A stretch of 64,000 nt of DNA from Hyphomicrobiales bacterium (GTDB taxonomy: Bacteria > Pseudomonadota > Alphaproteobacteria > Rhizobiales > RI-29). The position numbers and the translations under genes were made by a program. This document shows, one piece after another, positions 41,834 to 58,540 of the stretch. The stretch lies in contig WGLQ01000002.1 of assembly GCA_016125495.1 (NCBI GenBank), positions 26,969 through 90,968 on the forward strand, read 5' to 3'. Each line of letters opens with the position of its first letter. Position 1 is the first letter of the stretch. The notes beneath the pieces were generated by a model. It did not search any database. It had not been told where the DNA came from and saw only the letters and a program-made list of their open reading frames with translations.

Positions 41834-41876
41834 CGGTCGGACCCTCCTGGCGCACCCGGTCGCGGGCAAATGGAAA

Positions 41877-43367
41877 TCAGGCGCGCGGCGCGCCGACGTG
41901 GCGACCGGCCTCGGCCGGACGGGGGAGGGCGGCGTGAGCCTCGGCGACGGCACGCAGCCTTGCTTCGACTTCGGGTGCGGCCGGTGTCACCCGGCGCGCC
42001 TTCAGATCGACGTGCAGCAGCATGTGCTCGCCGGTGGCCAGCAGGGTGTCGTTGCGCCCGTTGTAGAGCCTGTGGAAGAGGTGCATGCGTTTGTCATCCG
42101 CACCGAGGACCTGGGTGGTGACGTAGATCGGCTCGAGGGCCTGCACCTCGTCCTTGTGGATGATATGGGTTTCGCCCGTGAAATAGCTCCGTCCAGCGGC
42201 GATGTAGCTGTCGTCTGCGCCGACGAAGTGCATCATGGCGTCGGTGGCGTTCGTGAAGGTTTCGAGATAGCGGCTCTCGTTCATGTGGTTGTTGTAGTCG
42301 GTCCACTCGGGTCGCACCTGGTCCTCGTAGAGGCGCAAAGGGCGGGAGAGGTCGTGACTGCCGGCGTCGGGAGCCGAGGCATGCGTGCGAGCGAGGAGGC
42401 TCGCCTCGTACTCGGAGAGCGTCCTGCCGGCGCCCCAACGGTTCTGGCGGAGCGACTGCATGATGGCAATGAGGTTGTCGTCACGGATGCGCTCGAGCTC
42501 GCGGATGGAAAGACCGGCGGCCTGTTCCTCGCACTGGACGGCGATCTTCTCGACCAGTTCGTCCGTCATCTCGGGCGTGTCCATGAGCTTGGTCCACGGC
42601 CATTTGAGCGCGGGGCCGAACTGCGCCATGAAATGGCGCATGCCCGCCTCGCCACCGGCGATGTTGAAGACCTGGAAGGTGCCCATCTGGGCCCAGCGGA
42701 GGCCGCAACCATAGCGGATAGCGTCGTCGATCTCGGCGGCCGTCGCGATGTCGTCGTGAACGAGCCAGAGGGCCTCGCGCCAAAGGGCCTCCATGAGGCG
42801 GTCGGCGATGAAGGCGTCGATTTCCTTGCGCACGACCAGGGGATGCATTCCGAGCGAGGCATAGAACGATTTCGCGGTCGCGGTCACGGCGAGGGCCGTT
42901 GCGGGGCTCGGCACGATCTCGACCAAAGGAAGGAGATAAACCGGATTAAAGGGGTGGCCGACGAGGAGCCGTTCCGGATTGCGCATGCCTTCCTGGAGAT
43001 CGCTCGGCTTGTAGCCGGAGGTCGAGGAGGCGATCACGACGTCCTGCGGAACGAGCGCCTCGATGTCGGCAAAAAGGCGCCTTTTCAATTCGATACGCTC
43101 GGGCGCGGCCTCCTGGATGAACTGCGCGCCAGCGAGAGCCTCGGCAAGGTCGGTCGTGACCCGAACACTGCCTTGCCGACCGAGCGGGGCGAGGGTCAGC
43201 TTGGACTGGGCGCGGCGGGCGAGGCGCATCACCTCGTCGACCTTGCGTGGCGCCTCGGGATCAGGGTCGACGACGACGACGTCGATGCCGTTGGCCGAGA
43301 AGCGGGCGGCCCAGGCTGCCCCGATCACGCCACCGCCGATGCAGGCGGCCTTTTCCACTGCGCTCAT
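41877..43367 (-). CDS. lcdH: L-carnitine 3-dehydrogenase fused to a C-terminal hotdog-fold thioesterase
   Basis: AACIGGGVIGAAWAARFSANGIDVVVVDP (3-hydroxyacyl-CoA dehydrogenase NAD fold), HPFNPVYLLPLVEIV and IRYGCGLRWAQMGTF. C-terminal ~150 aa is 4HBT-like (PEWTDYNNHMNESRYLETF...GETHIIHKDEV). ATG 43367 after GAGGAAAGAA. Confidence 0.8.
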   Translation of the reverse strand: MSAVEKAACIGGGVIGAAWAARFSANGIDVVVVDPDPEAPRKVDEVMRLARRAQSKLTLAPLGRQGSVRVTTDLAEALAGAQFIQEAAPERIELKRRLFADIEALVPQDVVIASSTSGYKPSDLQEGMRNPERLLVGHPFNPVYLLPLVEIVPSPATALAVTATAKSFYASLGMHPLVVRKEIDAFIADRLMEALWREALWLVHDDIATAAEIDDAIRYGCGLRWAQMGTFQVFNIAGGEAGMRHFMAQFGPALKWPWTKLMDTPEMTDELVEKIAVQCEEQAAGLSIRELERIRDDNLIAIMQSLRQNRWGAGRTLSEYEASLLARTHASAPDAGSHDLSRPLRLYEDQVRPEWTDYNNHMNESRYLETFTNATDAMMHFVGADDSYIAAGRSYFTGETHIIHKDEVQALEPIYVTTQVLGADDKRMHLFHRLYNGRNDTLLATGEHMLLHVDLKARRVTPAAPEVEARLRAVAEAHAALPRPAEAGRHVGAPRA

Positions 43368-43411
43368 TTCTTTCCTCGTTCGACTGACGTCGGGTTGGCG
43401 GCGCGCGGCGC

Positions 43412-44308
43412 TCAGCCGCGCTTCGTGAGAGCGAGGCGCTTGCGAACATCCGCCGGGCCGATGACGGTCGCGCCCATCGCCTCGAGGATGGTCACGGCGC
43501 GCTCGACGAGTTGCCCGTTCGTTGCGAGCACGCCGCGCGAGAGGTAAATATTGTCCTCGAGACCGACCCTGACGTTGCCGCCGGCCAGCGCCGAATGGGC
43601 AACCCAGGGCATCTGCATGCGGCCGATGGCAAAGCTGGACCAGATCGAGCCGGGTGGCAGGTTGTTGACCATGCCCATGAACGTGTTGGTGTCGGCCGGC
43701 GCGCCATAGGGAATGCCCATGCAGAGCTGGATGAGGGCGGGAGAGTCGATCAATCCCTCCCGCATCAGGTCCTTGACCTGCCAGAGGTGGCCGGTGTCGA
43801 AGACCTCGCATTCGGGCTTGACGCCGAGTTCCTTGATCCTCTTGGCCATGGCGCGGAGCATGTCGACGGAGTTGACCATGATGTAGTCGCCACCGGCGAG
43901 GAAGTTCATGGTGCCGCAGTCGAGGGTGCAGATCTCGGGGAGCAATTCGGCGACGTGGGCGAGACGCTCCTCGGCGCCGGCCATGTCGGTGCCCTTTTCC
44001 TTGAGCGGCAGGGGGCGCTCGGGCGAGCCGAGCACGAGGTCGCCGCCCATGCCGGCGGTGAGGTTGATGACGGCATCGACGCCCGAGGAGCGGATGCGGT
44101 CGACAGCTTCCTTGTAGAGGGCAACGGAGCGGGAACCGGCACCCGTTGCGGGATCGCGGACGTGGAGGTGGACGACGGCGGCGCCCGCCTTGGCGGCCTC
44201 GATAGCCGAGGCGGCGATTTCCGCGGGGGTGACCGGAACCTTGTCGCTCTTGTCGGTGGTGGCGCCGGCGCCAGTCACGGCGCAGGTGACGAAGACCTCC
44301 CAGTTCAT
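43412..44308 (-). CDS. Beta-keto acid cleavage enzyme (BKACE/DUF849; 3-dehydrocarnitine cleavage enzyme type)
   Basis: [49 protein letters not shown], the BKACE signature. ATG 44308 after GAGGAG. The longer track ORF extends to 44380. Confidence 0.85.
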
Positions 44309-44379
44309 CGTGGATCGTCTCCTCTTGCTCAGCATGGTGCGAGCCGAGATGCTATTGCGGGTGGCATCGGCATGCTTCA

Positions 44380-44409
44380 CAATTTGCGTGGAAACTCATG
44401 CAATTTGCG
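44380..44409. promoter_or_regulatory. Direct repeat CAATTTGCG x2 (21-bp register) in the divergent BKACE/regulator promoter region; candidate operator
   Basis: Read directly: CAATTTGCG at 44380-44388 and 44401-44409, within the 166-bp intergenic region between start codons 44308 (-) and 44475 (+). Confidence 0.4.
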
Positions 44410-44474
44410 CAACGCCGCATATCGCCGGACATGCCACGCACGCGGCCGCGCCGGCAACGGTTGGAGGAGGCACG

Positions 44475-45494
44475 ATGCTCTTTCAGGCTCGTGGTGGCAC
44501 CGCGCCGCTCAGACTCGACTTCCTCTTGCTGGAGGAGTTCACGCTTCTCGGGCTGGCGGCGGCCATGGAGCCGCTTCGGGCGGCGAATCGGGCGGCCGGT
44601 CAGGCGCTCTATCGTTGGCGGGTGCTTTCGGCGGACGGGCGACCCGTGGCTTCCTCCAGCGGCATGCAGATGATCGTGGAGGGGGAGTTCAACGCCGAGG
44701 CCGAGCGGGATGCGGTGATCTGTGTGGCCTCGTTCGGGGTGGCGCGTCAGGCGGCGGCTCTGGCGCGGCGATTGCGGACGCTGGCGCGCCGAGGGGTGAC
44801 GCTCGGCGGTATCGATTCGGGTGCCTGGGTGCTGGCGGCGGCGGGGTTGCTCGACGGCTATCGAGCGACCACGCACTGGGAGGATCTGGCCTCGTTCGCG
44901 GCGTCGCACCCGGAGGTCGAGGTCGTGCCGGATCGCTACGTCGTCGACCGGGGGCGGATCACGACGGGTGGCGCGACACCGGCCCTCGAGATGGCGCTCG
45001 ACCTCATCGCCGCCAACCATGGTCTCAACCTCTCGCTGATGGTCGCCAACGCGTTCATCTACGACCACCGCATGCGGGCCGGCGAGCCGCAACCGCTGGT
45101 GCCGGTCGGGCGGCTGGCGCTCGATGCGCCGGAGGTGGCGGAGGCGATCCGGATCATGGAACGGACACTCGCCGCGCCGATCGGCGTCGAGGCGATCGCG
45201 CGCCGGGTGGGGGTGGCGCGGCGCACGCTCGAGGTTGCGTTCCGCCGTGCGCTGGCGACATCGATCAACGCCTACTATCTCGATCTGCGGCTCGGGCATG
45301 CCCGCCGCCTGTTGCAGCACTCGCGGTTGAGCGTCACTGAAATCGCCGACCGCTCAGGCTTTTCCTCCAGCGCGGCGTTCGCACGTGCCTTCCGACGGCA
45401 GTTCGGCGAAACGCCTGGGGCCGCGCGGCGAACGGTCAGCGGCGCGGCGGATCGGCCGGGAGAGGCGATTGCAGGTCGCCGCCTTCGGGACTGA
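44475..45494 (+). CDS. GlxA-family (DJ-1/PfpI domain plus AraC HTH) transcriptional regulator, CdhR/GbdR-like
   Basis: ATG 44475 after GGAGGAGG. LDFLLLEEFTLLGLAAAMEPLRAANR (GATase1-like domain), with C-terminal AraC HTH SVTEIADRSGFSSSAAFARAFRRQFGETPG. Divergent from the carnitine genes. Confidence 0.8.
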   Translation: MLFQARGGTAPLRLDFLLLEEFTLLGLAAAMEPLRAANRAAGQALYRWRVLSADGRPVASSSGMQMIVEGEFNAEAERDAVICVASFGVARQAAALARRLRTLARRGVTLGGIDSGAWVLAAAGLLDGYRATTHWEDLASFAASHPEVEVVPDRYVVDRGRITTGGATPALEMALDLIAANHGLNLSLMVANAFIYDHRMRAGEPQPLVPVGRLALDAPEVAEAIRIMERTLAAPIGVEAIARRVGVARRTLEVAFRRALATSINAYYLDLRLGHARRLLQHSRLSVTEIADRSGFSSSAAFARAFRRQFGETPGAARRTVSGAADRPGEAIAGRRLRD

Positions 45495-46374
45495 CGGCAA
45501 GTGGCTGGCGGCGCTTGCGAACCAGAACCATGGCGAAGGCGATGACGGCTACGCCGAGCCATGTGTGGTCCTCGGGCCGCTCGGACCAGACGAGGTAGCC
45601 GATCGCCGCGGAAAAGAGGAAAATCGAGTAGTCGAACGGCGCTAGTACGCCGATCGACGCAAAACGGCATGCCTGGATGATGAGAATGGTGGCGGCGCCG
45701 CCGAGGAGACCAACACCCGTAAAGGCGAGCCACTCGTCCTGCCAGCCGATATCCCAAGCGGGCAAGGCAACAGGCAGTGCGAGGAGGGACATGCCGAGGG
45801 GCGTTGCGAGCAGCATGGTGTCCGACTCGCCGCGTGCCGCAAGCTCGCGGGTCATCAGCATCGCCGCGCAATAAAAGACCGTTGCGCCAAGTGCGAGCAG
45901 GATGCCTAGAGCCGAGGTATCGTGCCAGTCGAGGCTCCATGGCGAGACGATGAGCAGACCTCCGACGAGGCCGAGGGCGACGAGCCCAGCCTGCCTCAGG
46001 CCTATTTTCTCCATACCGAGGAGCCCTGCACTGATGGTCATGAGCACGGGAGCCAGCAGCGTGATGGCGGCCGCCTTGGCCAGGATGAGATACTTGAGGG
46101 AGATGAAAAATAAGGCGGTGGCGATCGCCGCCGTCGCGATGCGCGCGAGTTGCATGGCCGGACTGGAGGTCGAGAGGACGAAACGCCGCCGCGTCGCGAG
46201 GATGAAGGCGAGGACGGGCAAAAGCGCGAAGGCGCCGCGAAAGAACACGATCTGCGCGAAATCGAAGGTCGCAACGAGATGCTTGGCAAGCGCATCCATC
46301 GCAGCGAGGAGGGCGATGGCGATCGTGTAGAGGCCAGCGCCCAGGAGCGGATCGGAGGACAATTGTCCCTTCAC
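45436..46374 (-). CDS. EamA/DMT-superfamily transporter (putative exporter)
   Basis: About 10 hydrophobic helices in two EamA-like halves (YTIAIALLAAMDALAKHLV...; LLALGATVFYCAAMLMTREL...). GTG start 46374 overlaps the tfuA stop (GTGA at 46371-46374), indicating translational coupling. Confidence 0.8.
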   Translation of the reverse strand: MKGQLSSDPLLGAGLYTIAIALLAAMDALAKHLVATFDFAQIVFFRGAFALLPVLAFILATRRRFVLSTSSPAMQLARIATAAIATALFFISLKYLILAKAAAITLLAPVLMTISAGLLGMEKIGLRQAGLVALGLVGGLLIVSPWSLDWHDTSALGILLALGATVFYCAAMLMTRELAARGESDTMLLATPLGMSLLALPVALPAWDIGWQDEWLAFTGVGLLGGAATILIIQACRFASIGVLAPFDYSIFLFSAAIGYLVWSERPEDHTWLGVAVIAFAMVLVRKRRQPLAVSPEGGDLQSPLPADPPRR

Positions 46375-47138
46375 GGTGTGATGCCACGCTCGGCGAGGAG
46401 ACCAACGAACTGGGCCGTGAGGGGGACGGGCGGGCGCGCGGCCCGGGCGATGCCATCGCCGGGATCGTTTCCCCCGTCCGTCGTCGCGCCGGCGGCGCAG
46501 GCCGAAAGGCGGTCGAGCAGGGCGATGCCATCCTTGCGCTTCAGGTCGAAATCGCCGCCCGACCACCAGGCGGCGAAGCGCTGGCCTAGGTCGTTGCCCT
46601 CGTTGCCGGCACCTTCGAGGGCCGCGACGACGGCCTCGCAGGTGCGTTCCTTGTAGTCGAGGGACTTTGCCGTCGCGACGATCACGCTTGCCTCTTCAGA
46701 GGTTAGCCGGCCGGCCGTGAGCGCCAGTTCGCAGGCGTGGCGAATGTTCACCATCGCCTCGGACAGCGGCATGTAGCCGGCCTCGGCGGGGCCATGGATC
46801 AGCGCCACCTCGTCGTCGTCCTCATGAACCAGGTCGCGGTAGTCGGCGAAGATGCGGCCGACACCTTCCATGCCGAGGGCGTGGAGCTCGGCGGCACGCA
46901 GAGCGCCCATGCTGGATGCGCCGTAGACCCTCGCGCCACGCTCCATGGCCCAGACGATCTCCTTGTGCCAGACCGCACGGGTGGTCTCGAAGAAGCCGTC
47001 GATGATCGCGATGTGGCGTGCGCCGTCTGCAACCGCGGTGGCAACATCCCCGGCCGCGGCGGGGGGGCGAAACTCCAATGACGGCCAGCGCGAGAGGTCG
47101 CACGCCGAGAGGGTGGGGCCGGCAAAAACGACGATCAT
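46371..47138 (-). CDS. tfuA: TfuA-like protein
   Basis: MIVVFAGPTLSACDL...HIAIIDGFFETTRAVWHKEIVWAMERGARVYGASSMGALRAAELHALGMEGVGRIF is the TfuA signature. ATG 47138 lies 8 nt after GAGAGGAG. Confidence 0.9.
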   Translation of the reverse strand: MIVVFAGPTLSACDLSRWPSLEFRPPAAAGDVATAVADGARHIAIIDGFFETTRAVWHKEIVWAMERGARVYGASSMGALRAAELHALGMEGVGRIFADYRDLVHEDDDEVALIHGPAEAGYMPLSEAMVNIRHACELALTAGRLTSEEASVIVATAKSLDYKERTCEAVVAALEGAGNEGNDLGQRFAAWWSGGDFDLKRKDGIALLDRLSACAAGATTDGGNDPGDGIARAARPPVPLTAQFVGLLAERGITP

Positions 47139-47214
47139 CCATTCAGCTCCTCTCGATACGGCGGCCTGCGGCAGAAGACTGGTCAGGCACCCGCGGTCGG
47201 TCCCCCTTCGGAAC

Positions 47215-47236
47215 GGTTGCGATCCTGCACGCAACC
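47215..47236 (-). other. 7-bp GC-rich stem-loop in the ycaO-tfuA intergenic gap
   Basis: GGTTGCG (47215-47221) pairs with CGCAACC (47230-47236), with an 8-nt loop. There is no U-tract, so this is probably an mRNA processing or stability element rather than a terminator. Confidence 0.3.
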
Positions 47237-47294
47237 TCGAACGTGGTCAAATGCCTGGTGGTCCCGCCGTCGATCGCGAACGGTGTGCGCCGCT

Positions 47295-48596
47295 TCATCC
47301 GATGCCGAGTGGAGCGAGCACGCGTGGCCCCGGTTGGTAACCGACATCGTCATGGGGCGGTTCGAGGCCCGGAACAACGACCTTGGCGACGGAAATATCG
47401 GGATGCTCGGGCCAGCCGAGGTCCACCGCGACAGCTTCCTCGATCCCGACGGCCGCAAGGTTCGCGCAGACGCGGCGCAATTCGGCGTCGTAGGTCGGGG
47501 TGCACGGATCCGCGGGCCATGAGGGGGCGACCGGGGGGCGCGTGTCGATCTCGAGGCTCTCGCGAATGCGATCGGCGAAATCGCCGTCGATCACATAGTT
47601 GCGGGCGAGGAGATCGTCACGGGCGCCGGCGATCAGGGTGAGCCGGTCCTGGGCGGCCTCCGTTATGGCGCGTGACATGGCGATGGACGGACTGGCATGA
47701 CAACCTGAACCGATGGTGGCGCGCGCCTTCGAGCGCGACGCGGCGAGTCCCTCCCAGATCATGCAATAGGCGCATGGCACGCCGACGTCGCTGGTGATGT
47801 CCCAGAGATGGACTTCCATGCCGAGCGAATGGATGCGCTCGATCAGGGCACGGGGGCCATCGAGACAGGGATGGTCGAGGTCGAGGCGGGGAAAGGCGCG
47901 CACACGACCGAAGTGGTAATGAAACAGTGTGATGGCATCGCGCTCGATGATCTCATAGAGCGCATGCGTGATCGCCTCGAGGACGTTGTTGCCGGATGCC
48001 AGACCGTTCGAGCCCTTGAAAAAAATCCCCTCGGGTCCGCGATCCACCCCGATCGTGAAGTCGTTGGTAACGGTTTCGAGCGGCAAGAGGCGCGGCGTTT
48101 GCCCGAGGATGTCGAAGCCCTCGACCCAGGCGAGCGGAGCCTCGTCGAGCGGCGGGGCATCGTCGCGCATGGGCAGGCGCGTGAGGTCGACGGGGCGGCC
48201 GAGGCGGGCGACGGTGGCCACTGTCGTGCGGTGAACGGGCAGGCGCAGGTTCTCGGCATGGTGGGCCTCGATCGACTCCATGATCCCCGAGACCTTGGCG
48301 GCTTCGAGCGACACCCCCTTGCCGGTGGAAACGCTGACGGAGCGCGACAGCGGGCGCACCACATTGACGACGGGCAGCCCGATCCTGTCGAGCCCTGTGA
48401 TGTTGGCTACCCGGGTGATCCCGTAACGCGGCAGGAGCGGCATCACGCGATCCAGTGTTTCGCCGGGCGGGCGCGAGCGGAACGTGCCATCGTAAGCGTG
48501 GCGGGCCCCGGGCTCGAGGGCGGCCGGGTGGATCAAGTGTGTTGTGGTCCCGGCGGGGGCGGTCGCGAGGCGGGGTCCGGGAGCGGCGTCATCCAT
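47295..48596 (-). CDS. ycaO: YcaO-like family protein (TfuA-associated class)
   Basis: GKGVSLEAAKVSGIMESIEAHHAE and ALYEIIERDAITLF (the ATP/Mg-binding Glu motifs of the YcaO superfamily). ATG 48596 (GGAG 12 nt upstream), with alternatives GTG 48599 and TTG 48632 (track start). Confidence 0.9.
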   Translation of the reverse strand: MDDAAPGPRLATAPAGTTTHLIHPAALEPGARHAYDGTFRSRPPGETLDRVMPLLPRYGITRVANITGLDRIGLPVVNVVRPLSRSVSVSTGKGVSLEAAKVSGIMESIEAHHAENLRLPVHRTTVATVARLGRPVDLTRLPMRDDAPPLDEAPLAWVEGFDILGQTPRLLPLETVTNDFTIGVDRGPEGIFFKGSNGLASGNNVLEAITHALYEIIERDAITLFHYHFGRVRAFPRLDLDHPCLDGPRALIERIHSLGMEVHLWDITSDVGVPCAYCMIWEGLAASRSKARATIGSGCHASPSIAMSRAITEAAQDRLTLIAGARDDLLARNYVIDGDFADRIRESLEIDTRPPVAPSWPADPCTPTYDAELRRVCANLAAVGIEEAVAVDLGWPEHPDISVAKVVVPGLEPPHDDVGYQPGPRVLAPLGIG

Positions 48597-48923
48597 CACG
48601 AGGCGGGGCTCCAGTAGCGGCTGTGAAGGCAATGGTCATCGTTCGCGTCGGCGACATGGAGCGCCGAAACGCGAGGGCATGAGCTCTTTGCGCCCTGTGA
48701 CACCACGGGACTGCCTCCACTTCAGCCGACCGGGTGGGTAACGATGGTCGGATCGACAGCGACCGCCCCGATCCGGTCCTGTCGGGCGGTCCGTCGGGCG
48801 GGGGCTCCGACGATCTCCCTATACTCAAGAACCGCCGGGAACCCTCAGCCCCGAACAGTCCTGCGATCGATCGTCACGGGCTTTCAAGCGCGCGCTGGAG
48901 GCCGCTTCGATCGGTCATTGTTA

Positions 48924-49015
48924 TCACCCGGGACTAATCCGAATCGCCCTTTGATATTCAAGTCGAATTCAAACGTTCCATTCATCCGGGATTTAATCCA
49001 TCCATTCATCCGGGA
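48924..49015. repeat. Three copies of a TCAYCCGGGA motif in the low-GC spacer between the small ORF and ycaO
   Basis: TCACCCGGGA at 48924-48933, TCATCCGGGA at 48982-48991 and TCATCCGGGA at 49006-49015. The last two extend to CCATTCATCCGGGA, 24 bp apart. Copies 1 and 2 share a flanking ...AATCC. Confidence 0.6.
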
Positions 49016-49317
49016 CCAAAACTAGCGGAATCGTTAAACCCCGCGACCTCGACCCTCTCGCATTATCCCTGCGCGATTGATCCTCCTTCAAGCGGGCATG
49101 CCGAACCGATCGGCTGCATCCGCCGACGAATTTTGCGACATGGGTTCGGGTGTCGCGTTCAATCGGCAGGGTGCGGGGACAATCCGCCGCACATGCGAGC
49201 GAGCGCTTGGCATCGAAAATTTCAATCTGTTCTAAACAATTGATTCTTCGTCTATATTTTCCTTCTCACCTGAGCAGCGCAAGCGTTTCGACCGTGAGGA
49301 GAGATCGATTGTCGACC

Positions 49318-49360
49318 GTCGCGGACCGGAACGAATAATCGCTCCACGGCGATCCGCGAC
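49318..49360 (-). terminator. Imperfect stem-loop about 10 nt downstream of the small-ORF stop (possible attenuator or partial terminator)
   Basis: On the minus strand, GTCGCGGA (49360-49353) pairs with TCCGCGAC (49325-49318). The 27-nt loop has an internal GGA/TCC pairing, and there is no U-run immediately after. Confidence 0.3.
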
Positions 49361-49370
49361 GGTGCATAAG

Positions 49371-49520
49371 TCAGCGAATGCGTCCGCCGACCTGGGCGGG
49401 CGTAACCGCGGTCGCGGAAATACGACCGCCAACTTGAGCCGGAGTCACGGCCTTGGGAGCGATGCGTCCACCAACGTTCGAGGGCGTCTCGATCGCGGTC
49501 GTCGCCGTGGATTTTGTCAT
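49371..49520 (-). CDS. Unannotated 49-aa peptide with three VGGRI cassettes; candidate RiPP precursor (putative YcaO/TfuA substrate)
   Basis: Manual translation of the minus strand gives ATG (49520-49518) ... TGA (49373-49371): MTKSTATTAIETPSNVGGRIAPKAVTPAQVGGRISATAVTPAQVGGRIR. Strong SD lies directly upstream. The two AVTPAQVGGRI units differ at 9 of 11 codons, all synonymously. Same strand as, and upstream of, ycaO-tfuA-DMT. Confidence 0.75.
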   Translation of the reverse strand: MTKSTATTAIETPSNVGGRIAPKAVTPAQVGGRISATAVTPAQVGGRIR

Positions 49521-49531
49521 TTTCCTCTCCT
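49521..49531 (-). promoter_or_regulatory. Shine-Dalgarno sequence of the small ORF
   Basis: The reverse complement of 49521-49531 is AGGAGAGGAAA, immediately preceding the ATG. Confidence 0.7.
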
Positions 49532-49592
49532 GTTGACAGGTTTCTTAACGCGTCAAGTCAATCATTCAATCGGATGCGTGCAAACGGTATTA

Positions 49593-51335
49593 ATGATGGA
49601 TTCATCTTCTCCGGTTCGTTGGCAATCGGTTCTCTATGCCGATGCCGTGGCATATTCAGAATCAATGCGGTTGTGCAGATCGGAGACGATCGAGGCAATC
49701 GGGGCCGCGCGTCGGTCGTTCTGCGAAGCTGCCGCGCAGTATCACGGCCGCATCGTGGAGATGACGGGCGACAGCGTGCTCGCCGTCTTCAACACCAGCC
49801 AGGCGGCCATGCGGGCGGCGCTTTCGGTCCAGCACGCGCTGAGCCGCGGTCACGGCGAGGGCGATGGTCGGGCTCTGAGATTCCGAATCGCCATATGCGA
49901 AGGGGAAACCACGGAGGGTGAGGGCGGGCTCTTCGGAGAAGTGATCATCAAGGCGGCCCGCCTCCAGTCCCTGACGGCTCCCGGTTGCATCGGAGTCGAC
50001 GAGGATGTTTTTCAGGCCCTCGCCCCCAGTCTGCGCGTCTTCGAGCCGAGGCGGATCGGGGGGGTCGCAAAGGCGGGGTCGATGCCTATTCGCGGCATCG
50101 AGATCGACCCGGCGGCGATATCGACCGGTTGCCCGCCACCGGTTCCGCGTGGCGCCGGCAGTCGCCTCAGGGCGGTCACCGCGGTCGAGGTGCTGGTGGC
50201 CGGAACGACGGACGACGAGGTCCGCGATGTGCTGGCCGGCCGGGTGGTCGATCATCTCGTCGGCGCGGCGTTCGACGTGACGGCGCGACAGGTGCAGCGT
50301 GGCCTCAGGAATCTCCTCTCGCGAATGGCCAGGGATGGGGCAGGCTGCGGCGACTACCTGGTGCTGATCGAAGGCGAGCCCGGTTTCGGGCGGTCGGTCA
50401 AGCTCGGCATCTACAGCCGCCAGCAACGGAGATTCCTTCTCTCGCGACACTTTGGCTGCCTGGAGTTCGGACACGGTCGAGGACACAATGTCGCGGGGGC
50501 GCCGGGTGGCGCGAGCGTCGATACGGTCGCCTCCTATGTCGTCGATACGATCGAGGTCGGTGAGATCGAAGCGAGCGACAACCAGGTCCTCTCCCCCCGT
50601 GGCAGTTTCCATCACTACCTCAAGGGAAAGCGTTTGCTTTCCACATACAGCCGGATCGGCATACTGGAAGGCATAAGGGCACTCAGGGAGGCCCTCCATT
50701 TCGATCCCGACTATGCGAGGGCACATGCCCTCCTGGCGCGTGGCTATGCCATAGCGTGGCGCTTCGACTGGGCTTGCGGACCGGCTCAGCCGCTCGAGAC
50801 GGCGATCGAGCACGCGAGCCGGGCGGTGCAGATCGACCCGATCGATCCCGTCTGCGAGCATCAGCTCGGGTTCTGTCACTTCTGGTCGGGTGAGCGCGAT
50901 CGCGCAGTCTATGCGCTCGAGCGGGCGCGGCGCATGCGGCCAGGGTGCGCGGGTGTGGCCGGCGACCTCGGCATGGTATTCAGCTATCTCGATCGCTGCG
51001 ACGAGGCGATCGATCTCTTGCAGGCATCGCTCGCCCTCGACGAGACGAATCCGGATTATCGTCTCTGGTCGCTCGGGGATGCCCACTTCGAGAGGGGCGA
51101 CGACGAGGCGGTTCTGCGCGTGCTCAGCCGGATGCGGGATCCGACTCAATCCTATCGCCTGCTCGCCGCCGCGACCGCGCGCCTCGGCGGTGACCCGCGC
51201 CGGCACGTGGACCGCCTCTTGCGGTACCAGCCCGATTTTTCCGTCGAGCGCTGGATCGCCGTGCAGCCGACCATGACCGAGGAGGGGAAAACGGTCTATG
51301 CCGAAGCGCTGCGTGCGGCGGGGCTGCCGGGCTGA
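49593..51335 (+). CDS. Class III adenylate/guanylate cyclase domain protein with C-terminal TPR-like repeats
   Basis: Cyclase catalytic motifs VLYADAVAYSESM, EMTGDSVLAVF and FRIAICEGE...GEVIIKAARLQSLTAPGCIGV. C-terminal helical repeats (ARAHALLARGYAIAW, PDYRLWSLGDAHFERGDDEAV). Start taken at ATG 49593; the track start 49362 is rejected (see the rejected list). Confidence 0.8.
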   Translation: MMDSSSPVRWQSVLYADAVAYSESMRLCRSETIEAIGAARRSFCEAAAQYHGRIVEMTGDSVLAVFNTSQAAMRAALSVQHALSRGHGEGDGRALRFRIAICEGETTEGEGGLFGEVIIKAARLQSLTAPGCIGVDEDVFQALAPSLRVFEPRRIGGVAKAGSMPIRGIEIDPAAISTGCPPPVPRGAGSRLRAVTAVEVLVAGTTDDEVRDVLAGRVVDHLVGAAFDVTARQVQRGLRNLLSRMARDGAGCGDYLVLIEGEPGFGRSVKLGIYSRQQRRFLLSRHFGCLEFGHGRGHNVAGAPGGASVDTVASYVVDTIEVGEIEASDNQVLSPRGSFHHYLKGKRLLSTYSRIGILEGIRALREALHFDPDYARAHALLARGYAIAWRFDWACGPAQPLETAIEHASRAVQIDPIDPVCEHQLGFCHFWSGERDRAVYALERARRMRPGCAGVAGDLGMVFSYLDRCDEAIDLLQASLALDETNPDYRLWSLGDAHFERGDDEAVLRVLSRMRDPTQSYRLLAAATARLGGDPRRHVDRLLRYQPDFSVERWIAVQPTMTEEGKTVYAEALRAAGLPG

Positions 51336-51562
51336 TCGGGATCGCTAGGTGTGCGGCCGTTGGTACCGCCTTGCGACGCACGTTTCATCGATGGGATGAT
51401 GCAACGTGTTACTGCGGTTTTCCTAACAGCGCCCGGTTGGTTTTCGCCCCTGCTTGGCACAAGAGGTTTACCGGTAGGCGATATAACAATGTCCACGGCC
51501 GAAGGCGGGTGCTTCTCGTCGTATGCGAGCGCGGCTCGAGGGGGGACGAATTGGGGGCAGGG

Positions 51563-52294
51563 ATGAAAGGGGGAAGCTGCGCGCAGCGGCAGTTGCGGAG
51601 GCTCGTCGACAAGGTGGAGCTCTTCCGGGGGATCGGTGAGCACACGGTGGCAGAAATCAGCCGTCGCGCGCGAGCTGTTTCGTTCGCCGGGGGCGAGGAG
51701 ATCGTGCGGCTGGGCGAGCCTGCCACGTCACTTTATCTTCTGGCGCTTGGCCGGGCGGAGGTCTCGGTGCTCGGTCTCGATGGACGCAAGGTCGTGGTCA
51801 ATGTGATCGGCGCGCCCGATCTCTTCGGAGAGATCGCGATCGCCGATGGCGGGCCGCGAACGGCGACGGTGACCGCACTCGAGGCCATCGATTGCTGGAT
51901 GATCGGGCGCGACGACCTGTTGGCCGCACTGGCGTCCGATGCGTGCCTGTCTCGACGGCTCCTCGAATTGCTGGCGAGACGCTTGCGGGCGATAAACGAA
52001 CAGTATTTCGAAGCGACGACCCTGTCCGTACCGGTTCGGGCGGCGCGCCAGCTGTTGCGGCTGGAGGGCCGGGCCGGGGTGTCCGGCCAGCCGGTGCGAA
52101 TTTCGCAGGAGGCGCTCGCGCATCAGGTGGCGGCCTCGCGCGAGCACATGAACCGGGTGCTGACCGGCTGGCGGCGCGGCGGTATCGTGGAGGTGGTACG
52201 CGGGGCGATCATCATCCGTGACGGCTCGCGGCTCAGCAAGCTCGCCGGGTTCGATCACGATCGGCCGGCGGGGACGGCGCGCGCCCTGGGTTGA
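51563..52294 (+). CDS. Crp/Fnr-family transcriptional regulator
   Basis: cNMP-binding domain LFGEIAIADGGPRTATVTALE and C-terminal HTH ISQEALAHQVAASREHMNRVLTGWRRGGIV. Start at ATG 51563. Confidence 0.85.
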   Translation: MKGGSCAQRQLRRLVDKVELFRGIGEHTVAEISRRARAVSFAGGEEIVRLGEPATSLYLLALGRAEVSVLGLDGRKVVVNVIGAPDLFGEIAIADGGPRTATVTALEAIDCWMIGRDDLLAALASDACLSRRLLELLARRLRAINEQYFEATTLSVPVRAARQLLRLEGRAGVSGQPVRISQEALAHQVAASREHMNRVLTGWRRGGIVEVVRGAIIIRDGSRLSKLAGFDHDRPAGTARALG

Positions 52295-52325
52295 CCGACA
52301 ACGAGCCTGCCGGAGCGCCGCCTAT

Positions 52326-53195
52326 TCAAGCGCCCTTGCGGGCGCGGGCTTCGGCCAATGCCATGTCGATGTAGAGCGCGCGCAGCCGCTTGGCGATGGG
52401 GCCCGGTGTGCCATCGCCGAGGGCGATACCGTCGATGCGCACGACGGGGCACACGAACGAAGACGCCGAAGTGATGAACGCTTCGCGCGCGGTCTTGGCC
52501 TCCTCGGGCGTGAAACGGCGTTCCTCGACACGCAACTGCGCCTCGCGGGCGAGGTCGAGAACGGCCTTGCGGGTGATGCCGTGCAGGATCTCGTTGCCGA
52601 GATGCCGGGTGACGATGGTCCCGTCGGCGGTCACGATGTAGGCGTTGTTCGACGTGCCCTCGGTCACGTATCCGTCCTCGACCATCCAGGCGTCGTCGGC
52701 GCCGGCGTCGATCGCCTGCTGTTTTGCGAGGCTCGGGGCGAGCAGCGCGACGGTCTTGATGTCGCGCCGCTTCCAGCGGATGTCCTCCAGGGTGATGACC
52801 GAAATGCCTCGTGCCGCGCGCGGGCTGTCGAGAATGCTGGCCGTCTGGGTGAAGAGAACGAGCGAGGGCTTGGGGTCCTTCGGCAGGGCGAAGTCGCGGT
52901 CGGCCGCGCCTCGCGTCACCTGCAGATAGACCATGCCTTCGCGCAGCTCGTTGCGCGCGACGAGTTCGCGCTGGACCGCCTCGATCTCCTCGGCGCTCGC
53001 GGGGGCCGGCATCGAGAGTTCGCGCATGGAGCGCTCGAGCCTCGTCATGTGGGCGGCATTGTCGATGAGTTCGCCCTCAAGCACCGACGTCACTTCATAG
53101 ACGCCGTCCGCAAAGAGGAAGCCACGGTCGAAGACGGAGATCTTGGCTTCCGCCTCGGGCAGGAAATGGCCATTCACGTAGACGATGCGGCTCAT
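52326..53195 (-). CDS. dat: D-amino-acid transaminase (class IV aminotransferase)
   Basis: MSRIVYVNGHFLPEAEAKISVFDRGFLFADGVYEV and MVYLQVTRGAADRDF are typical of Dat and fold-type IV enzymes. Start at ATG 53195. Confidence 0.8.
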   Translation of the reverse strand: MSRIVYVNGHFLPEAEAKISVFDRGFLFADGVYEVTSVLEGELIDNAAHMTRLERSMRELSMPAPASAEEIEAVQRELVARNELREGMVYLQVTRGAADRDFALPKDPKPSLVLFTQTASILDSPRAARGISVITLEDIRWKRRDIKTVALLAPSLAKQQAIDAGADDAWMVEDGYVTEGTSNNAYIVTADGTIVTRHLGNEILHGITRKAVLDLAREAQLRVEERRFTPEEAKTAREAFITSASSFVCPVVRIDGIALGDGTPGPIAKRLRALYIDMALAEARARKGA

Positions 53196-53297
53196 GGTCG
53201 GTCCTCGATCGCTTTGACCAGCGGATGGGCGGCGATACAATCACCATCGAGGAAGTCGAGGCAAGCGCCTTGATCGCGAGGCTGGCGGTCGGGCGGC

Positions 53298-53795
53298 GTG
53301 GTGGGAGTGGTGCGGAACGTGACCGTCGGCAACGGCAAGCGGCTGCTGATCGTGGCCCATGCGCCATCTGCCAACACCTTGCGATTGCGCGAGGCGGTTG
53401 AACGGGGCGCGCGCCGCGAGCCGGACGTTTGCGTCGAGGTGGTCGTCAAGGCGCCGCTCGAGGCCGGCCCCGACGACGTGCGCGCGTGCCAGGCGATCGT
53501 GCTCGGCACCACCGAGAACCTCGGCACCATGTCCGGTGCGCTCAAGGACTTCTTCGACCGCACCTATTATCCGGTGTTGGAGGAAAAGCAGGGCCTGGCC
53601 TACGCCCTCTACGTTCGCGCAGGGCACGATGGAACGGGCACCTGCCGCGCGGTCGCCTCCATCACGACGGGGCTGCGCTGGCGGGCGGTGGCCGAGCCGC
53701 TGGTGATGCGTGGGACGTGGCGGGACGGGTTCGTCGGCGAGTGCGAGGAACTCGGCGCGCTGATGGCGGCCGGGCTCGATGCGGGCATCTTTTGA
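53298..53795 (+). CDS. Flavodoxin-like fold family protein
   Basis: KRLLIVAHAPSANTLRLREAV...IVLGTTENLGTMSGALKDFFDRTYY. The start is uncertain (several GTGs at 53298-53319). Confidence 0.6.
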   Translation: MVGVVRNVTVGNGKRLLIVAHAPSANTLRLREAVERGARREPDVCVEVVVKAPLEAGPDDVRACQAIVLGTTENLGTMSGALKDFFDRTYYPVLEEKQGLAYALYVRAGHDGTGTCRAVASITTGLRWRAVAEPLVMRGTWRDGFVGECEELGALMAAGLDAGIF

Positions 53796-53859
53796 CGGCA
53801 CCGAACGAGCGGCGCTCGCATGCGCTGGGGCAGGGGCGGCACGCTCCGAAGCTCGGCTT

Positions 53860-54936
53860 TCAATCTCCGACCGGCTCGTCGCCGTCCCGCCGAGGGGCTG
53901 CCGCCGGTCCCCAGACGCCGGAGATGAGGTTCGCGGCGAGGAGAGCGGCCGTGTCCGGAGGGCCGGATGTGAACGTGGTGATGGCCCGCTCGAGACGGCA
54001 AAGTTCGGCCTCGTGGGCGCGTGCGGCGGCGGATGCCTCGTCCGGTGCGACAGCTGCGAAGCGAAAGCGGGCGCCGGGCGCCATTCGGCCGAGGTGAGGC
54101 AGGTCGGCCGAGATCACCGTGGCGATCTTGGGATAGCCGCCGGTCGTCTGGCGATCGGCGAGGAGGACGATCGGTTGGCCGGAGCCGGGCACCTGTATGG
54201 CGCCGGTGGCGATGCCGTCGGAGGCGATATTGTAGCCGCCCGCGTGTTCGATCGGGGGGCCGTCGAGGCGCAGGCCCATCCGGTCGGCCTCGCTGCTGAC
54301 CGTCCACTCGGCTTCGAGAAGTGTCGCAAATCCGCGATCGGTGAAGTGGTCGCGTTGAGGGCCGGGTACGACGCGGATGTAGTCGGCGGGTTGGATCGGC
54401 CAGGGCGGCAGGCGGCGCTCGAGGCCGGCTGGGGGACCGTCTTGGCAGAGCGAAAGGCGGTCGCCAACGGCAAGTGCGCGCCCTTCGTGACCACCGAAAC
54501 GGCCGCGCACATAGGTCGAGGCGCTCCCCATGATCAGCGGTACGTCGAGGCCACCAGCGACCGCGAGGTAGGCGGTCGCGCTCGACGCGAGGGGACCGAC
54601 AGCGACGCGTTCACCGGCACGCACCGTGACGCTTTCACCCGACTTCACCCGGCGTGGTCCGGAGCCCCCTGTGCCAGCGATCTCGAGGCTTGCCTCAGCC
54701 CCGACGACAGCGAGGCGGACCGGTCCGCCCACGGCCTCCAAAGTGGGGCCGACGAGGCGCATCTCGAGGGCGGCGGCACCCGCCGGGGCCCCAGCCAGCG
54801 CGTTGGCGAGCCGGTAGGACGCCGCATCGAGCGCGCCCGAGGTCGGCACGCCGAGGCGCTGGTGGCCGAAGCGGCCGCGATCCTGGACGGTCGTGAAGAA
54901 GCCCGGCTGACGGACGAGGAGAGCGGCACGGGTCAT
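53860..54936 (-). CDS. pxpC: 5-oxoprolinase subunit C (PxpC; biotin-independent carboxyltransferase/KipA family)
   Basis: MTRAALLVRQPGFFTTVQDRGRFGHQRLGVPTSGALD and QTTGGYPKIATVISADL, the family signature. Start overlaps the pxpB stop. Confidence 0.85.
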   Translation of the reverse strand: MTRAALLVRQPGFFTTVQDRGRFGHQRLGVPTSGALDAASYRLANALAGAPAGAAALEMRLVGPTLEAVGGPVRLAVVGAEASLEIAGTGGSGPRRVKSGESVTVRAGERVAVGPLASSATAYLAVAGGLDVPLIMGSASTYVRGRFGGHEGRALAVGDRLSLCQDGPPAGLERRLPPWPIQPADYIRVVPGPQRDHFTDRGFATLLEAEWTVSSEADRMGLRLDGPPIEHAGGYNIASDGIATGAIQVPGSGQPIVLLADRQTTGGYPKIATVISADLPHLGRMAPGARFRFAAVAPDEASAAARAHEAELCRLERAITTFTSGPPDTAALLAANLISGVWGPAAAPRRDGDEPVGD

Positions 54937-55673
54937 CGGCGGCCTCCCGTCGATGCGGGGGCTTGCCAGCGGCTCCAGTCGGCGGCCTCGGGCGTGCCCT
55001 CGAGCCTGTCGTAATCGGCCCGCGGGATGGCGATGAAGCGCACGCTGTCACCCGGCGCAAGGAGGGTCGGGGGCTCGCGCTCGAGGGTAAAGAGCGGAAC
55101 CGGCGTGCGCCCGAGGATGTGCCAGCCGCCCGGGCTCTCGAGCGGGTAGACGATGGTGAGGCCGACGGCAATCGACACCGAACCGCGCGGCACACGCACG
55201 CGTGGATCGAGGCGGCGTGGCAGGTCGATGGCCGGGGCGATGTCGCCCATGTAGGGCAGGCCCGGAAGGAAGCCGATCATGTAGACGAGGTAGGTGGCGT
55301 CGCTGTGGAGGCGCACGACCTCGTCGACGGACAGTTCGCGGGAGCGGGCCACGTCGTCGAGGTCGAGGCCGAATTCGGGATCGTAACAGACCGGGATGTG
55401 CCAGGTGCGCGGGGAATCCTCGATGGACGTGAGGCCGGCGACGAGGCCCTGCAACTCCGCCTCGAGGTCGGACGGCTTCCAGACGAGCGGATCATAGTGA
55501 ACGGTGAGCGAGCGGAACGTCGGGATGGTCTCGACGATGCCGGCGAGCGCGGCCTCTGCGACCCGGCGGTCGAGCGCCAGGATGCGGCGGCTCGTCTCTC
55601 GCTCGACGTTGGTCGCGAACTCGATCGTCAGCGCCGTGTCGCCCATGGGCAGGAAGCGAGGTGATGTCGTCAT
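54933..55673 (-). CDS. pxpB: 5-oxoprolinase subunit B (PxpB; KipI family)
   Basis: FLPMGDTALTIEF...ETIPTFRSLTVHYDP...YLVYMIGFLPGLPYMG...PGGWHILGRTP. Start at ATG 55673; the track ORF upstream extension is spurious. Confidence 0.85.
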   Translation of the reverse strand: MTTSPRFLPMGDTALTIEFATNVERETSRRILALDRRVAEAALAGIVETIPTFRSLTVHYDPLVWKPSDLEAELQGLVAGLTSIEDSPRTWHIPVCYDPEFGLDLDDVARSRELSVDEVVRLHSDATYLVYMIGFLPGLPYMGDIAPAIDLPRRLDPRVRVPRGSVSIAVGLTIVYPLESPGGWHILGRTPVPLFTLEREPPTLLAPGDSVRFIAIPRADYDRLEGTPEAADWSRWQAPASTGGRR

Positions 55674-55838
55674 GGCTGTGGCTCGGCTCCGACCCGCGAC
55701 ACTGCGGCAACCGTCGAGGATGCGCCGCTTGCGCGATGCGAGGATGGCGTCTTGGGACCGCCCGATTGGACAGGCCGACACGGGCCGGGCCATAGTGCGC
55801 GGGTCGATCTCTTTGTCCAGCCCGCACCGGTGAATGCC

Positions 55839-56624
55839 ATGTCCGACCGCATCAACATCAACGCCGACATGGCGGAAGGCTTCGGGGCCTACGACATCGG
55901 CGACGACGACGCGTTGCTCGATATCGTGCGAACGGCCAACGTCGCCTGCGGATTTCATGGAGGCGATGCGGCAACCATGCGGCGGGTCGCGATCGCGGCG
56001 GCGGCCAAGGGGGTCAGCATCGGGGCGCATCCCGGGTTCGACGATCTGTGGGGCTTCGGGCGGCGGCAGATCAGGATGAATGCCGACGAACTCGAGTATC
56101 AGTGCGCCTATCAGATCGGGGCGATGCAGGCGATGGCGCACTACGCGGGCATCGCCGTCACGCATGTCAAGGCGCACGGGGCGCTCAACAACATGGCCTG
56201 CACCGACCGGGGCTATGCAATGGCGATCGCGCGGGCGGTCAAGGTGGTGGATGCCGGCCTCATTCATCTGGTGATGCCGGGCACGGAGTTGGAGCGGGTC
56301 TCGCGCGAGCTGGGGCTGGTGACGGCGCTCGAAGCGTTCGTCGATCGCACCTACGAGGACGATGGTACGCTGACGCCGAGGAGCATGGCCGGCTCCGTGA
56401 TCCGCGACGAGGCGGTGGCGAGCGCGCGGGCGGTGCGTATGGTGACGACCGGCGAGATCGTCGCACGGAGCGGCAAAGTACTGCGCCTGCCGTTCCATTC
56501 GCTCTGCGTGCATGGCGACGAGCCGACGGCGGTCGCGGTGGCACGGGCGGTGAGGCGCGGGCTCGAGGCGGCCGGCGTCTCGGTCGTGACGCTGCCGGAA
56601 ATGCTGGTGGACGGGGCGGCCTAG
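55839..56624 (+). CDS. pxpA: 5-oxoprolinase subunit A (PxpA; LamB/YcsF family)
   Basis: ININADMAEGFGAYDIGDDDALLDIVRTANVACGFHGGDAATM...IGAHPGFDDLWGFGRR. Divergent from pxpBC. Confidence 0.85.
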   Translation: MSDRININADMAEGFGAYDIGDDDALLDIVRTANVACGFHGGDAATMRRVAIAAAAKGVSIGAHPGFDDLWGFGRRQIRMNADELEYQCAYQIGAMQAMAHYAGIAVTHVKAHGALNNMACTDRGYAMAIARAVKVVDAGLIHLVMPGTELERVSRELGLVTALEAFVDRTYEDDGTLTPRSMAGSVIRDEAVASARAVRMVTTGEIVARSGKVLRLPFHSLCVHGDEPTAVAVARAVRRGLEAAGVSVVTLPEMLVDGAA

Positions 56625-56652
56625 CGCTGCTGGTTCCTCATTGTTCTGCCTC

Positions 56653-57798: not shown

Positions 57799-57922
57799 CG
57801 GGTGTCTTCCCAAAGTGGCTCGTCGCGGCACACGCAAGCCGCCTCCGGAGGACGGGCGCGCCGACGTTGGTTGGCTCGAATGCGGCGGCCGACCGCCCCT
57901 CCCAGTTGCCGAAGGGCACGCG

Positions 57923-58453
57923 TCAGCGACCGCCTGCCCGGGCGATGCCCTCGCGGATGACGCGCTTGGCCACCTCGTGGTTGCCCCATTCGGCGACGCG
58001 CACCCACTTTTCCTTCTCGAGGTCCTTGTAGTGCTCGAAGAAGTGACCGATCTGCCGGCGGACCACGTCGGGCAGATCGGCGACGTCGTGGACACCGACG
58101 AAGCGCTGGGAAACGCGGGCGCTCGGCACGGCGATCACTTTTTCATCCTTGCCGGCCTCGTCCTCCATGAAGAGAACCCCGATCGGCCGGCAGTTGATGA
58201 CGCATCCTGGCATGAGCGGCCGGTTGTTGGCGATCAGCACGTCGACGGGATCGCCGTCGTCGGAGATCGTGTGCGGAATGAAACCGTAGTTTCCGGGATA
58301 GCGCATCGCGGTGTGCAGGATGCGGTCGACGAACATCGTGCCGGAAGCCTTGTCCATCTCGTACTTGATCGGCTCGCCGCCGATCGAGACCTCGACCAGC
58401 ACGTTGATGTCGTCGGGCGGATTGTCGCCGATGGGGATCGCTTCGATGCGCAT
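57923..58453 (-). CDS. ppa: Inorganic pyrophosphatase
   Basis: [20 protein letters not shown]...[22 protein letters not shown]...KVIAVP, the family I PPase signature. Start at ATG 58453. Confidence 0.95.
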
Positions 58454-58540
58454 GGGACCTCCTCGGGCAGTTGGGCGGCTGCGGCTTTGCACGGTGCTGC
58501 GGTGACCGTCGAGCAGCTCTGGCGCCGACTGTCCGTGCGA

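Follow-up and report, generated by a model that had tools for sequence, protein, structure and literature searches.

The window, as we call the whole 64,000-nucleotide stretch analyzed here (positions 26,969 to 90,968 of contig WGLQ01000002.1 in the Hyphomicrobiales bacterium assembly GCA_016125495.1), carries a minus-strand open reading frame (ORF) of 49 codons that encodes a short peptide with three similar cassettes and lies upstream of genes for a YcaO protein, a TfuA protein, and an EamA-type drug/metabolite transporter (DMT). An earlier reading of the letters alone, hereafter the sequence-only reading, had proposed this ORF as a candidate multicore precursor of a ribosomally synthesized and posttranslationally modified peptide (RiPP) for the adjacent YcaO-TfuA pair. 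Comparative genomics supports that candidacy, and we consider it reasonably probable that the ORF encodes a translated, leaderless, multicassette precursor that is the substrate of the same-strand YcaO-TfuA for backbone thioamidation. The peptide, YcaO, TfuA, and EamA genes form a unit of four that spans about 4.2 kb, the last three all lying downstream of the first on the same strand, as had been claimed. The features of the unit are as follows.

49521-49531, minus strand: Shine-Dalgarno-like sequence AGGAGAGGAAA, directly 5' of the peptide ATG (sequence reading)
49371-49520, minus strand: candidate cassette precursor-peptide gene, 49 codons (direct reading of the minus strand)
49316-49363, minus strand: GC-rich stem-loop of 13 + 7 bp, 8 nucleotides after the peptide stop codon (folding; inverted repeat I2)
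48597-49315, minus strand: long spacer of lower GC (0.55-0.60) between the peptide gene and ycaO, with weak promoter-like and terminator-like matches
47295-48596, minus strand: YcaO, 433 amino acids from the ATG at 48596 (PF02624, 2.6e-70, covering 2-325 of 325)
46371-47138, minus strand: TfuA, 255 amino acids (PF07812, 8.7e-46)
45436-46374, minus strand: EamA/DMT transporter, presumed exporter (PF00892, 3.2e-18)

Translation of the minus strand places the ATG of the peptide gene at 49520 and the TGA at 49373-49371; the product, MTKSTATTAIETPSNVGGRIAPKAVTPAQVGGRISATAVTPAQVGGRIR, and the sequence preceding the start codon agree exactly with the sequence-only reading. The peptide opens with a short, nonconserved N terminus (MTKSTATTAIE), after which three cassettes follow one another with a 14-residue period, their cores reading TPSNVGGRI, TPAQVGGRI, and TPAQVGGRI before a final R. 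One such unit, written as a 14-mer, is AVTPAQVGGRISAT, and the motif VGGRI recurs three times at a spacing of 14 residues. The 11-residue string AVTPAQVGGRI occurs twice (units 2 and 3), and the two copies differ in 9 of 11 codons, all nine changes being third-base and synonymous, in precisely the codon pairs that had been listed.

The probability that nine changes in 33 nucleotides would all hit third positions by chance is 1.4e-6, and in 200,000 simulations that each placed nine substitutions, the peptide was never preserved. In a six-frame test, the peptide frame retained 11/14 identity between successive 14-residue units and four frames retained 3/14; the antisense frame that shares the wobble positions reached 9/14 but holds stops. 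Comparison of the cassette cores of the window with those of a homologous locus, L003 (see below), gave 16, 3, and 65 nucleotide differences at the first, second, and third codon positions, respectively, and the three DNA copies of the cassette within the window share only 73-77% identity. Given that units 2 and 3 are set apart by silent changes only and that the differences between the window and L003 show this codon-position bias, selection acts on the peptide and not on a DNA repeat, which bears out the corresponding claim of the sequence-only reading.

That reading had further regarded as spurious the N-terminal extension of a plus-strand ORF beginning at 49362, which runs antisense to the peptide gene. 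In this ORF, the coding-type periodicity in GC content at third codon positions (GC3) begins only near 49660, and an independent gene caller puts the start at 49665, one at 49593 also being possible; hence, the peptide ORF lies in a divergent intergenic region, outside any real gene. The gene calls and precomputed Pfam matches used here come from an 18.5-kb Logan contig (L002) that is 100% identical to positions 40971-59520 of the window and on which the automatic gene caller did call the 49-residue ORF. The protein cluster that holds the peptide contains only Logan-derived sequence, with no NCBI members, and the GenBank accession numbering leaves six slots for the seven genes between those for BKACE and a D-amino-acid transaminase, so that the peptide gene is apparently missing from the annotation of the metagenome-assembled genome (MAG).

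When compared with the YcaO of the window, its homologues split into a small group with 52-61% identity and a very large group with 47% or less (38-47%), which we term the close and distant clades. The loci of the close clade, together with a relative of its peptides on a contig of its own, are the following (L003 to L014 denote contigs or loci with YcaO homologues or peptide relatives).

L003, YcaO 61% identical: upstream ORF MSASNLNTPAQVGGRIRPMTKTPAQTGGRIRPVTETPSQVGGRIRPAASTPSQLGGRIR, with TP[AS]Q[VTL]GGRIR four times
L004, YcaO 58% identical: ORF at 5472-5714, with a 25-residue N terminus and four (A/V)TPTQVCGK(I/V)S units
L007, 1898-2098 (protein P0122), YcaO not on the contig: the L004 peptide with three units
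L005, YcaO 58% identical: contig begins inside the cassette gene, which reads ...VGGKIRPQAVI*
L006, YcaO 52% identical: contig begins inside the gene; frame 3 reads (ASVGARVAAP)x3...QPTR*, with PASVGARVA three or more times
L014, YcaO 58% identical: 179 nucleotides of upstream DNA, too little to show a cassette ORF

The presence of a small cassette ORF beside orthologous ycaO-tfuA loci was the test that the sequence-only reading had set in advance. Such an ORF is found on the same strand in all four of the close YcaO homologue loci that keep upstream DNA, giving five loci when the window is counted. In all five, the peptide, YcaO, TfuA, and EamA are encoded on one strand, and EamA follows TfuA in each of the four loci that reach that far (the window, L003, L005, and L006). 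As far as the contigs extend, the order of the locus is likewise kept: a Crp-like regulator, a divergently transcribed gene for a protein with a cyclase-like domain and TPR repeats (cyclase-TPR), the peptide gene, a hairpin, YcaO, TfuA, and EamA. Thus, the peptide is conserved together with YcaO, TfuA, and EamA, and no other candidate substrate ORF is conserved across the close-clade loci.

The three full-length ORFs all have an ATG preceded by a Shine-Dalgarno-like sequence, which in L003 and L004 is purine rich and lies 6-9 nucleotides upstream. The N termini of the close-clade peptides (7-25 residues) cannot be aligned and the cassettes are conserved, with a consensus of T-P-x-Q-(V/T/L)-(G/C)-G-(R/K)-(I/V); the window and L003 peptides both end exactly in ...GGRIR. 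The peptide genes of L004 and L007, which come from different assemblies, are otherwise identical and differ by exactly one 14-residue cassette (four versus three), pointing to change in cassette number over short timescales. A variable number of cassettes, N termini that do not align, and conserved cassettes together follow the pattern of multicore precursors.

Between the peptide gene and ycaO, the window hairpin (minimum free energy of -42.8 kcal/mol; z score of -2.96) is without a U-tract and is possibly an attenuator or an mRNA stabilizer. A stem-loop 3' of the peptide stop codon is also present in L003:2164-2198, L004:5728-5789 (and L007), L005:35-76, and L006:141-179; the strongest, and the only one of these with clear significance, is that of L004/L007 (z of -5.29, with a U-rich tail), those of L003, L005, and L006 reaching only z values of -1.3 to -1.8. 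As an attenuator, the post-stop hairpin may set the ratio of precursor to enzyme transcript. The distance from the peptide gene to ycaO is 774 nucleotides in the window, 166 in L003, 286 in L004, and about 480 in L006. No convincing ORF was found in the window spacer at 48597-49315, and an Rfam scan of 48400-49800 at E <= 1 returned no match. Within this spacer, at 49115-49127, lies a stretch of 13 nucleotides that nearly matches cassette DNA (minus strand, GTCGGCGGATGCA; repeat D4), which we considered as a relic cassette and set aside as too short to tell from chance. In L006, an unrelated perfect tandem repeat of about 15 nucleotides, (CACTTGGGCCTGGAT)n, occupies positions 320-395 between the truncated peptide gene and ycaO.

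YcaO proteins activate a backbone amide with ATP, and those partnered with TfuA install thioamides, with TfuA delivering sulfide equivalents from a ThiS-type thiocarboxylate (PMC13063428, PMC13174530). The window YcaO scores 176.8 bits against TIGR00702, above the cutoff of 75.65, and its tfuA neighbor starts 156 nucleotides downstream on the same strand (an alternative TTG start at 47234 would give 287 residues), so that, together with the Pfam matches, the membership of both in their families is clear. The best NCBIfam match of YcaO is the McrA-glycine thioamidation family TIGR03266 (183.1 bits, below the cutoff of 365), and among solved structures it comes closest to MJ1094, a thioamidation YcaO of methanogens (6pe3; 1e-26); TfuA matches NF033432 at 9e-54 with 182 bits, below the cutoff of 235.2. 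Taking together the adjacency of YcaO and TfuA, the McrA thioglycine pair as their best curated matches, and MJ1094 as the best structural match, we predict that these enzymes are of the thioamide-forming type, though identity with the McrA-type equivalogs is ruled out, both scores being below the NCBIfam cutoffs. An azoline-forming cyclodehydratase of the thiazole/oxazole-modified microcin (TOMM) kind was also rejected, based on the score against the SagD-type family TIGR03604 (109.8 bits, below the cutoff of 219.25), the peptide devoid of Cys, and the TfuA partner; the gene calls show no E1-like or dehydrogenase gene either. The EamA gene overlaps the tfuA stop codon by 4 nucleotides.

The closest precedent for a repetitive YcaO-TfuA substrate is thiovarsolin from Streptomyces varsoviensis, described by Santos-Aberturas et al. 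in 2019, whose precursor, VarA, has up to five imperfect repeats; this confirms what the sequence-only reading had said of that pathway. There, varA, varY, and varT suffice to make thioamidated N-acetyl-(A/G)PR tripeptides; the cluster has no protease gene, and the tripeptides are released by host peptidases (PMC6511847). Like that cluster, the window has adjacent YcaO and TfuA genes, a small precursor of imperfect tandem repeats whose conserved part ends in Arg, a transporter gene, and no dedicated protease; short thioamidated peptides are the demonstrated products of the former and would, by analogy, be those of the latter. The two nevertheless belong to different families. No BLASTP alignment of the window and L003 peptides with VarA (PMC6511847, supplementary file 6) was obtained at E <= 100; the window unit has 14 residues and a TPxQVGGRI core without Pro-Arg, whereas that of VarA has 16 and an APR core; and the VarA leader, of about 30 residues, is alignable, in contrast to the nonconserved 7- to 25-residue N termini of the window clade. 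The heme-oxygenase-like VarO, the ATP-grasp protein, and the amidinotransferase of the var cluster are absent from the gene calls and Pfam matches of the 18.5-kb contig, and instead of a major facilitator superfamily transporter in an actinomycete, we find an EamA transporter in a Hyphomicrobiales MAG with cyclase-TPR and Crp-type links. Membership in the VarA/thiovarsolin family is thus ruled out by precursor, core, unit length, accessory genes, and phylum.

McrA-type YcaO/TfuA proteins act independently of a leader on a local sequence motif, in which the modified residue is Gly. Although they are the best curated and structural match of the window enzymes (TIGR03266/NF033432; MJ1094, 6pe3), they modify a large enzyme subunit whose gene lies elsewhere and no exporter is involved, whereas the window has a dedicated repeat peptide and a presumed exporter. 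With the multicore precursors of other RiPP classes (cyanobactin PatE-type, phomopsin, some microviridins, and borosins), the window peptide shares several near-identical cores and a cassette number that varies between strains; those precursors, however, come with recognition sequences flanking each core and with dedicated proteases or macrocyclases, their chemistry is another, and the window clade encodes no such enzymes.

The sequence-only reading had not recognized the peptide as a described family, and our searches agree. It has no NCBIfam match at E <= 0.001 and no Pfam match at E <= 0.1, NHLP and Nif11 leaders included. A search of a 5.8-billion-protein index with the peptide returned only itself, and one with an alignment of four peptides returned only the peptide and P0122, the three-cassette variant of the L004 peptide. 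A HMMER scan of 1.84 billion representatives gave 11 further matches, which by eye were rejected as unrelated repeat translations (e.g., ...HQFCGALTP... and ...LSPKAVTELKVH...). Scanning Joint Genome Institute (JGI) metagenomes with cassette patterns gave 154 pattern matches, none of them confirmed. Full-text literature searches found no description of the peptide or its motif, the searchable literature being incomplete such that a description in a subscription journal is possible. By these measures (no Pfam or NCBIfam match, no similarity to VarA, no description in the searchable literature), the peptide family is uncatalogued.

The immediate neighbors of the four-gene unit include candidate regulators on the plus strand.

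49665-51335, plus strand: cyclase-like TPR protein, divergent from the peptide gene, start at 49665 or possibly 49593 (gene call)
51563-52294, plus strand: Crp/FNR-type regulator with a cyclic nucleoside monophosphate (cNMP)-binding domain and HTH_Crp_2 (gene call, domain matches)
44475-45494, plus strand: AraC/DJ-1-type regulator, beyond which lie unrelated metabolism genes (gene call)

The cyclase-TPR protein combines an N-terminal class-III-cyclase-like domain with C-terminal TPR repeats and shares 36% identity from end to end with an L004 protein that carries PF00211 (Guanylate_cyc); in L004 too, a Crp-type regulator stands beside the cyclase-TPR gene.

For the wider lineage, we viewed the contexts of 13 loci retrieved through protein look-ups and of another 57 that a YcaO alignment had picked up in metagenomes; of the latter, a single one was a further close-clade contig (L014) and the other 56 were of the distant clade. 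A scan of a genome collection with a single YcaO sequence had the distant locus L001 among the matches listed. The layout of the distant clade, which is much the commoner and occurs in marine and sediment metagenomes and in cultured Roseovarius, consists of YcaO, a long TfuA (about 445 residues), an HExxH protein of about 435 residues, and a repeat-tailed protein of 155-215 residues (L012:5001-9516, L008:2217-6922, L001:5818-10220, L019:6346-6855, L037:3995-4483, L045:3448-3930, L048:4675-5223, L051:6320-6802, L053:5487-6029, L054:3923-4465, and L066:2338-3135). The repeat-tailed protein (about 190 residues) has a conserved N-domain followed by a C-terminal run of short tandem cassettes, namely, (VSGAR)6-8 in eight metagenome loci, (VSGAK)6 in Roseovarius, (AYSGGK)7 in L008, and (RSVMSS)5 in L001, so that cassettes across this clade read (V/L/I)SGA(R/K), YSGGK, or SVMSSR. 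Every DNA unit within a tail run is different, and the changes fall almost only at third codon positions (51 of 51 in L012). Pfam and NCBIfam have no matching family for the HExxH protein or for the repeat-tailed one.

Hence, the theme of a YcaO-TfuA pair accompanied by a tandem-cassette gene recurs in the distant clade, and the cassette cores in both clades share a pattern of hydrophobic, small, Gly/small, small, and basic residues, as in V-S-G-A-R, Y-S-G-G-K, Q-V-G-G-R, S-V-G-A-R, and Q-V-C-G-K. The repeat-tailed proteins are probable substrates of the YcaO-TfuA-HExxH clade. EamA follows TfuA in none of the distant-clade loci, and tblastn with the distant HExxH protein and the 190-residue protein's N-domain showed both to be absent from the window clade; consequently, we rejected the possibility that the window peptide is a piece of a distant-type repeat-tailed gene. 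In the two layouts, the repeat-bearing gene lies on opposite sides of ycaO-tfuA, yet the cyclase-TPR gene stays beside it, divergent upstream in the close clade and convergent downstream in the distant one (L004:2792-5362, L008:8016-8470, L012:9553-11200, and the locus ends of L037, L045, L051, L053, and L054). Crp/cNMP-binding regulators also recur nearby, with Crp-type genes in L009 and L012 as well. The association of cyclase-TPR and Crp-type neighbors suggests that control or sensing by way of cyclic nucleotides is linked to the peptide. In Azospirillum sp. BE72, a 65-residue ORF without repeats (L009:4682-4879) lies directly upstream of ycaO-tfuA; its neighbors are RHH_4 genes, a gene of the cyclase-AAA-TPR type, and one of the Crp type, and it presents a different type of candidate substrate for the same enzyme lineage; the cassette design is thus common but not universal in the wider lineage.

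From this organization, we infer a scheme for how and at which residue the peptide is thioamidated, how it is cut into several cores, what the product is, and how export and regulation proceed. As there is no conserved leader, YcaO would recognize each cassette directly and activate one backbone amide with ATP, and TfuA would supply sulfide equivalents, yielding one thioamide per cassette. By analogy with the Pro-psi[CS-NH]-Arg of thiovarsolin, the site is most likely to be the small-small-basic G-G-R, next to the conserved basic residue. Host peptidases might then trim the protease-sensitive linkers to leave several short, protease-resistant thioamide peptides per precursor, which the cotranscribed EamA transporter would export. 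The post-stop hairpin could keep the precursor transcript in excess over that of the enzymes, and the cyclase-like TPR protein and the Crp-type regulator might place the locus under cyclic-nucleotide control. On this view, an alphaproteobacterium of soil or water probably uses the peptide as the raw material for a new modified peptide.

Several points weigh against this proposal. The support for the role as substrate comes entirely from comparative genomics. As no leader or element of the RiPP recognition element (RRE) type is visible, substrate recognition is assumed, and as the close-clade clusters encode no protease, the release of separate cores is conjecture. Cotranscription with ycaO is not assured, since 774 nucleotides and a strong hairpin lie between, and, because the peptide gene always adjoins the cyclase-TPR gene as well, its closeness to ycaO is not enough to identify YcaO as the partner. 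The GC3 of the ORF is 0.66, as against 0.78-0.84 in the neighboring genes. The cassette family is very small, with five loci, two of them truncated by the contig end, and the whole-database protein searches yield the peptide and P0122 alone. Finally, in L006, where the DNA repeats are perfect, the reading frame was assigned solely by its similarity to those of the other loci.

An alternative that we judge unlikely, though it has several observations in its favor, accepts the peptide as the YcaO-TfuA substrate and regards the (nearly) whole poly-thioamide peptide, uncut, as the product, e.g., an antibiotic or a peptide that binds metal. The gene calls show no protease in the close-clade clusters, the peptides of the window and L003 stop exactly at ...GGRIR, the conserved 14-residue spacing could reflect a structural repeat, and in L004 a Cys in each cassette (VCGKI) would, along with thioamides, suit metal binding. 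Against it, the cassette number is free to vary between three and four in near-identical strains, linkers and N termini show poor conservation, and the typical cargo of EamA/DMT carriers is small metabolites and not 5-kDa peptides. The putative HExxH protease added in the distant clade and the cutting of thiovarsolin repeats by host peptidases (PMC6511847) likewise speak for processing.

We give a lower standing, as very unlikely, to the idea that the peptide is translated but stays unmodified, serving as a ligand or regulator of the cyclase-TPR protein, with its proximity to ycaO-tfuA reflecting shared regulation only. The constancy with which the cyclase-TPR gene accompanies the repeat-bearing gene in both clades, despite their opposite placement relative to ycaO-tfuA, speaks for this idea, and TPR domains are known in general to bind short linear peptides. 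Nevertheless, YcaO-TfuA needs a peptide or protein substrate and these loci hold no other conserved candidate ORF; the peptide, YcaO, TfuA, and EamA share one strand in 5 of 5 loci, and repeated YcaO-TfuA substrates have precedent (PMC6511847). The least credible explanation, that the ORF is fortuitous and the 42-nucleotide repeats are noncoding, e.g., iterated regulator-binding sites, draws on the position of the element in a divergent promoter region beside regulator genes, the only moderate GC3, and the nearly perfect DNA repeats of L006 and L004, but is effectively excluded by the codon-position statistics (silent changes in 9 of 9 cases between units 2 and 3; 16, 3, and 65 between loci), along with window copies that are 73-77% identical at the DNA level while encoding a conserved peptide and an ATG, Shine-Dalgarno-like sequence, and open frame ending just past the last cassette that are conserved in three full-length homologues.

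A further and quite unlikely extension is that the cassette peptide, YcaO-TfuA, the exporter (replaced by an HExxH protease in the distant clade), cyclase-TPR, and the Crp-type regulator constitute a thioamide peptide-signaling circuit widespread in proteobacteria. In such a circuit, small-small-basic thio-oligopeptides would be set free from the VGGR or VSGAR cassettes, with the TPR domain of the neighboring cyclase serving as their sensor and the Crp-type regulator relaying the cyclic nucleotide so formed in a feedback loop; the whole would parallel, with thioamides, the RRNPP peptide quorum sensing of Gram-positive bacteria.

The characterized YcaO-TfuA RiPP classes listed in a May 2026 preprint are all from Actinobacteria (PMC13174530), and most TfuA-YcaO clusters are found in Proteobacteria, none of those with a known product (PMC8120280). 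The window falls among the latter; in their main text, Malit et al. (2021, PMC8120280) use neither "repeat" nor "EamA" and do not mention cassette peptides or repeat-tailed proteins. The general concept has precedent, and what would be new is a leaderless multicassette candidate precursor for a proteobacterial YcaO-TfuA. With its compact unit and obvious candidate substrate, the locus makes the question of the proteobacterial products testable, and the comparison points to the VSGAR/VSGAK tails as probable substrates in the far commoner marine and sediment clade. If correct, our proposal would establish a new thioamidated peptide family, identify a motif through which a YcaO-TfuA pair recognizes its substrate independently of a leader, and possibly connect the making of RiPPs with signaling by cyclic nucleotides. 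At the far end of the unit, the gene calls on L002 show that eamA (minus strand) and the convergent AraC/DJ-1-type gene (plus strand) share a 59-nucleotide 3' overlap at 45436-45494.

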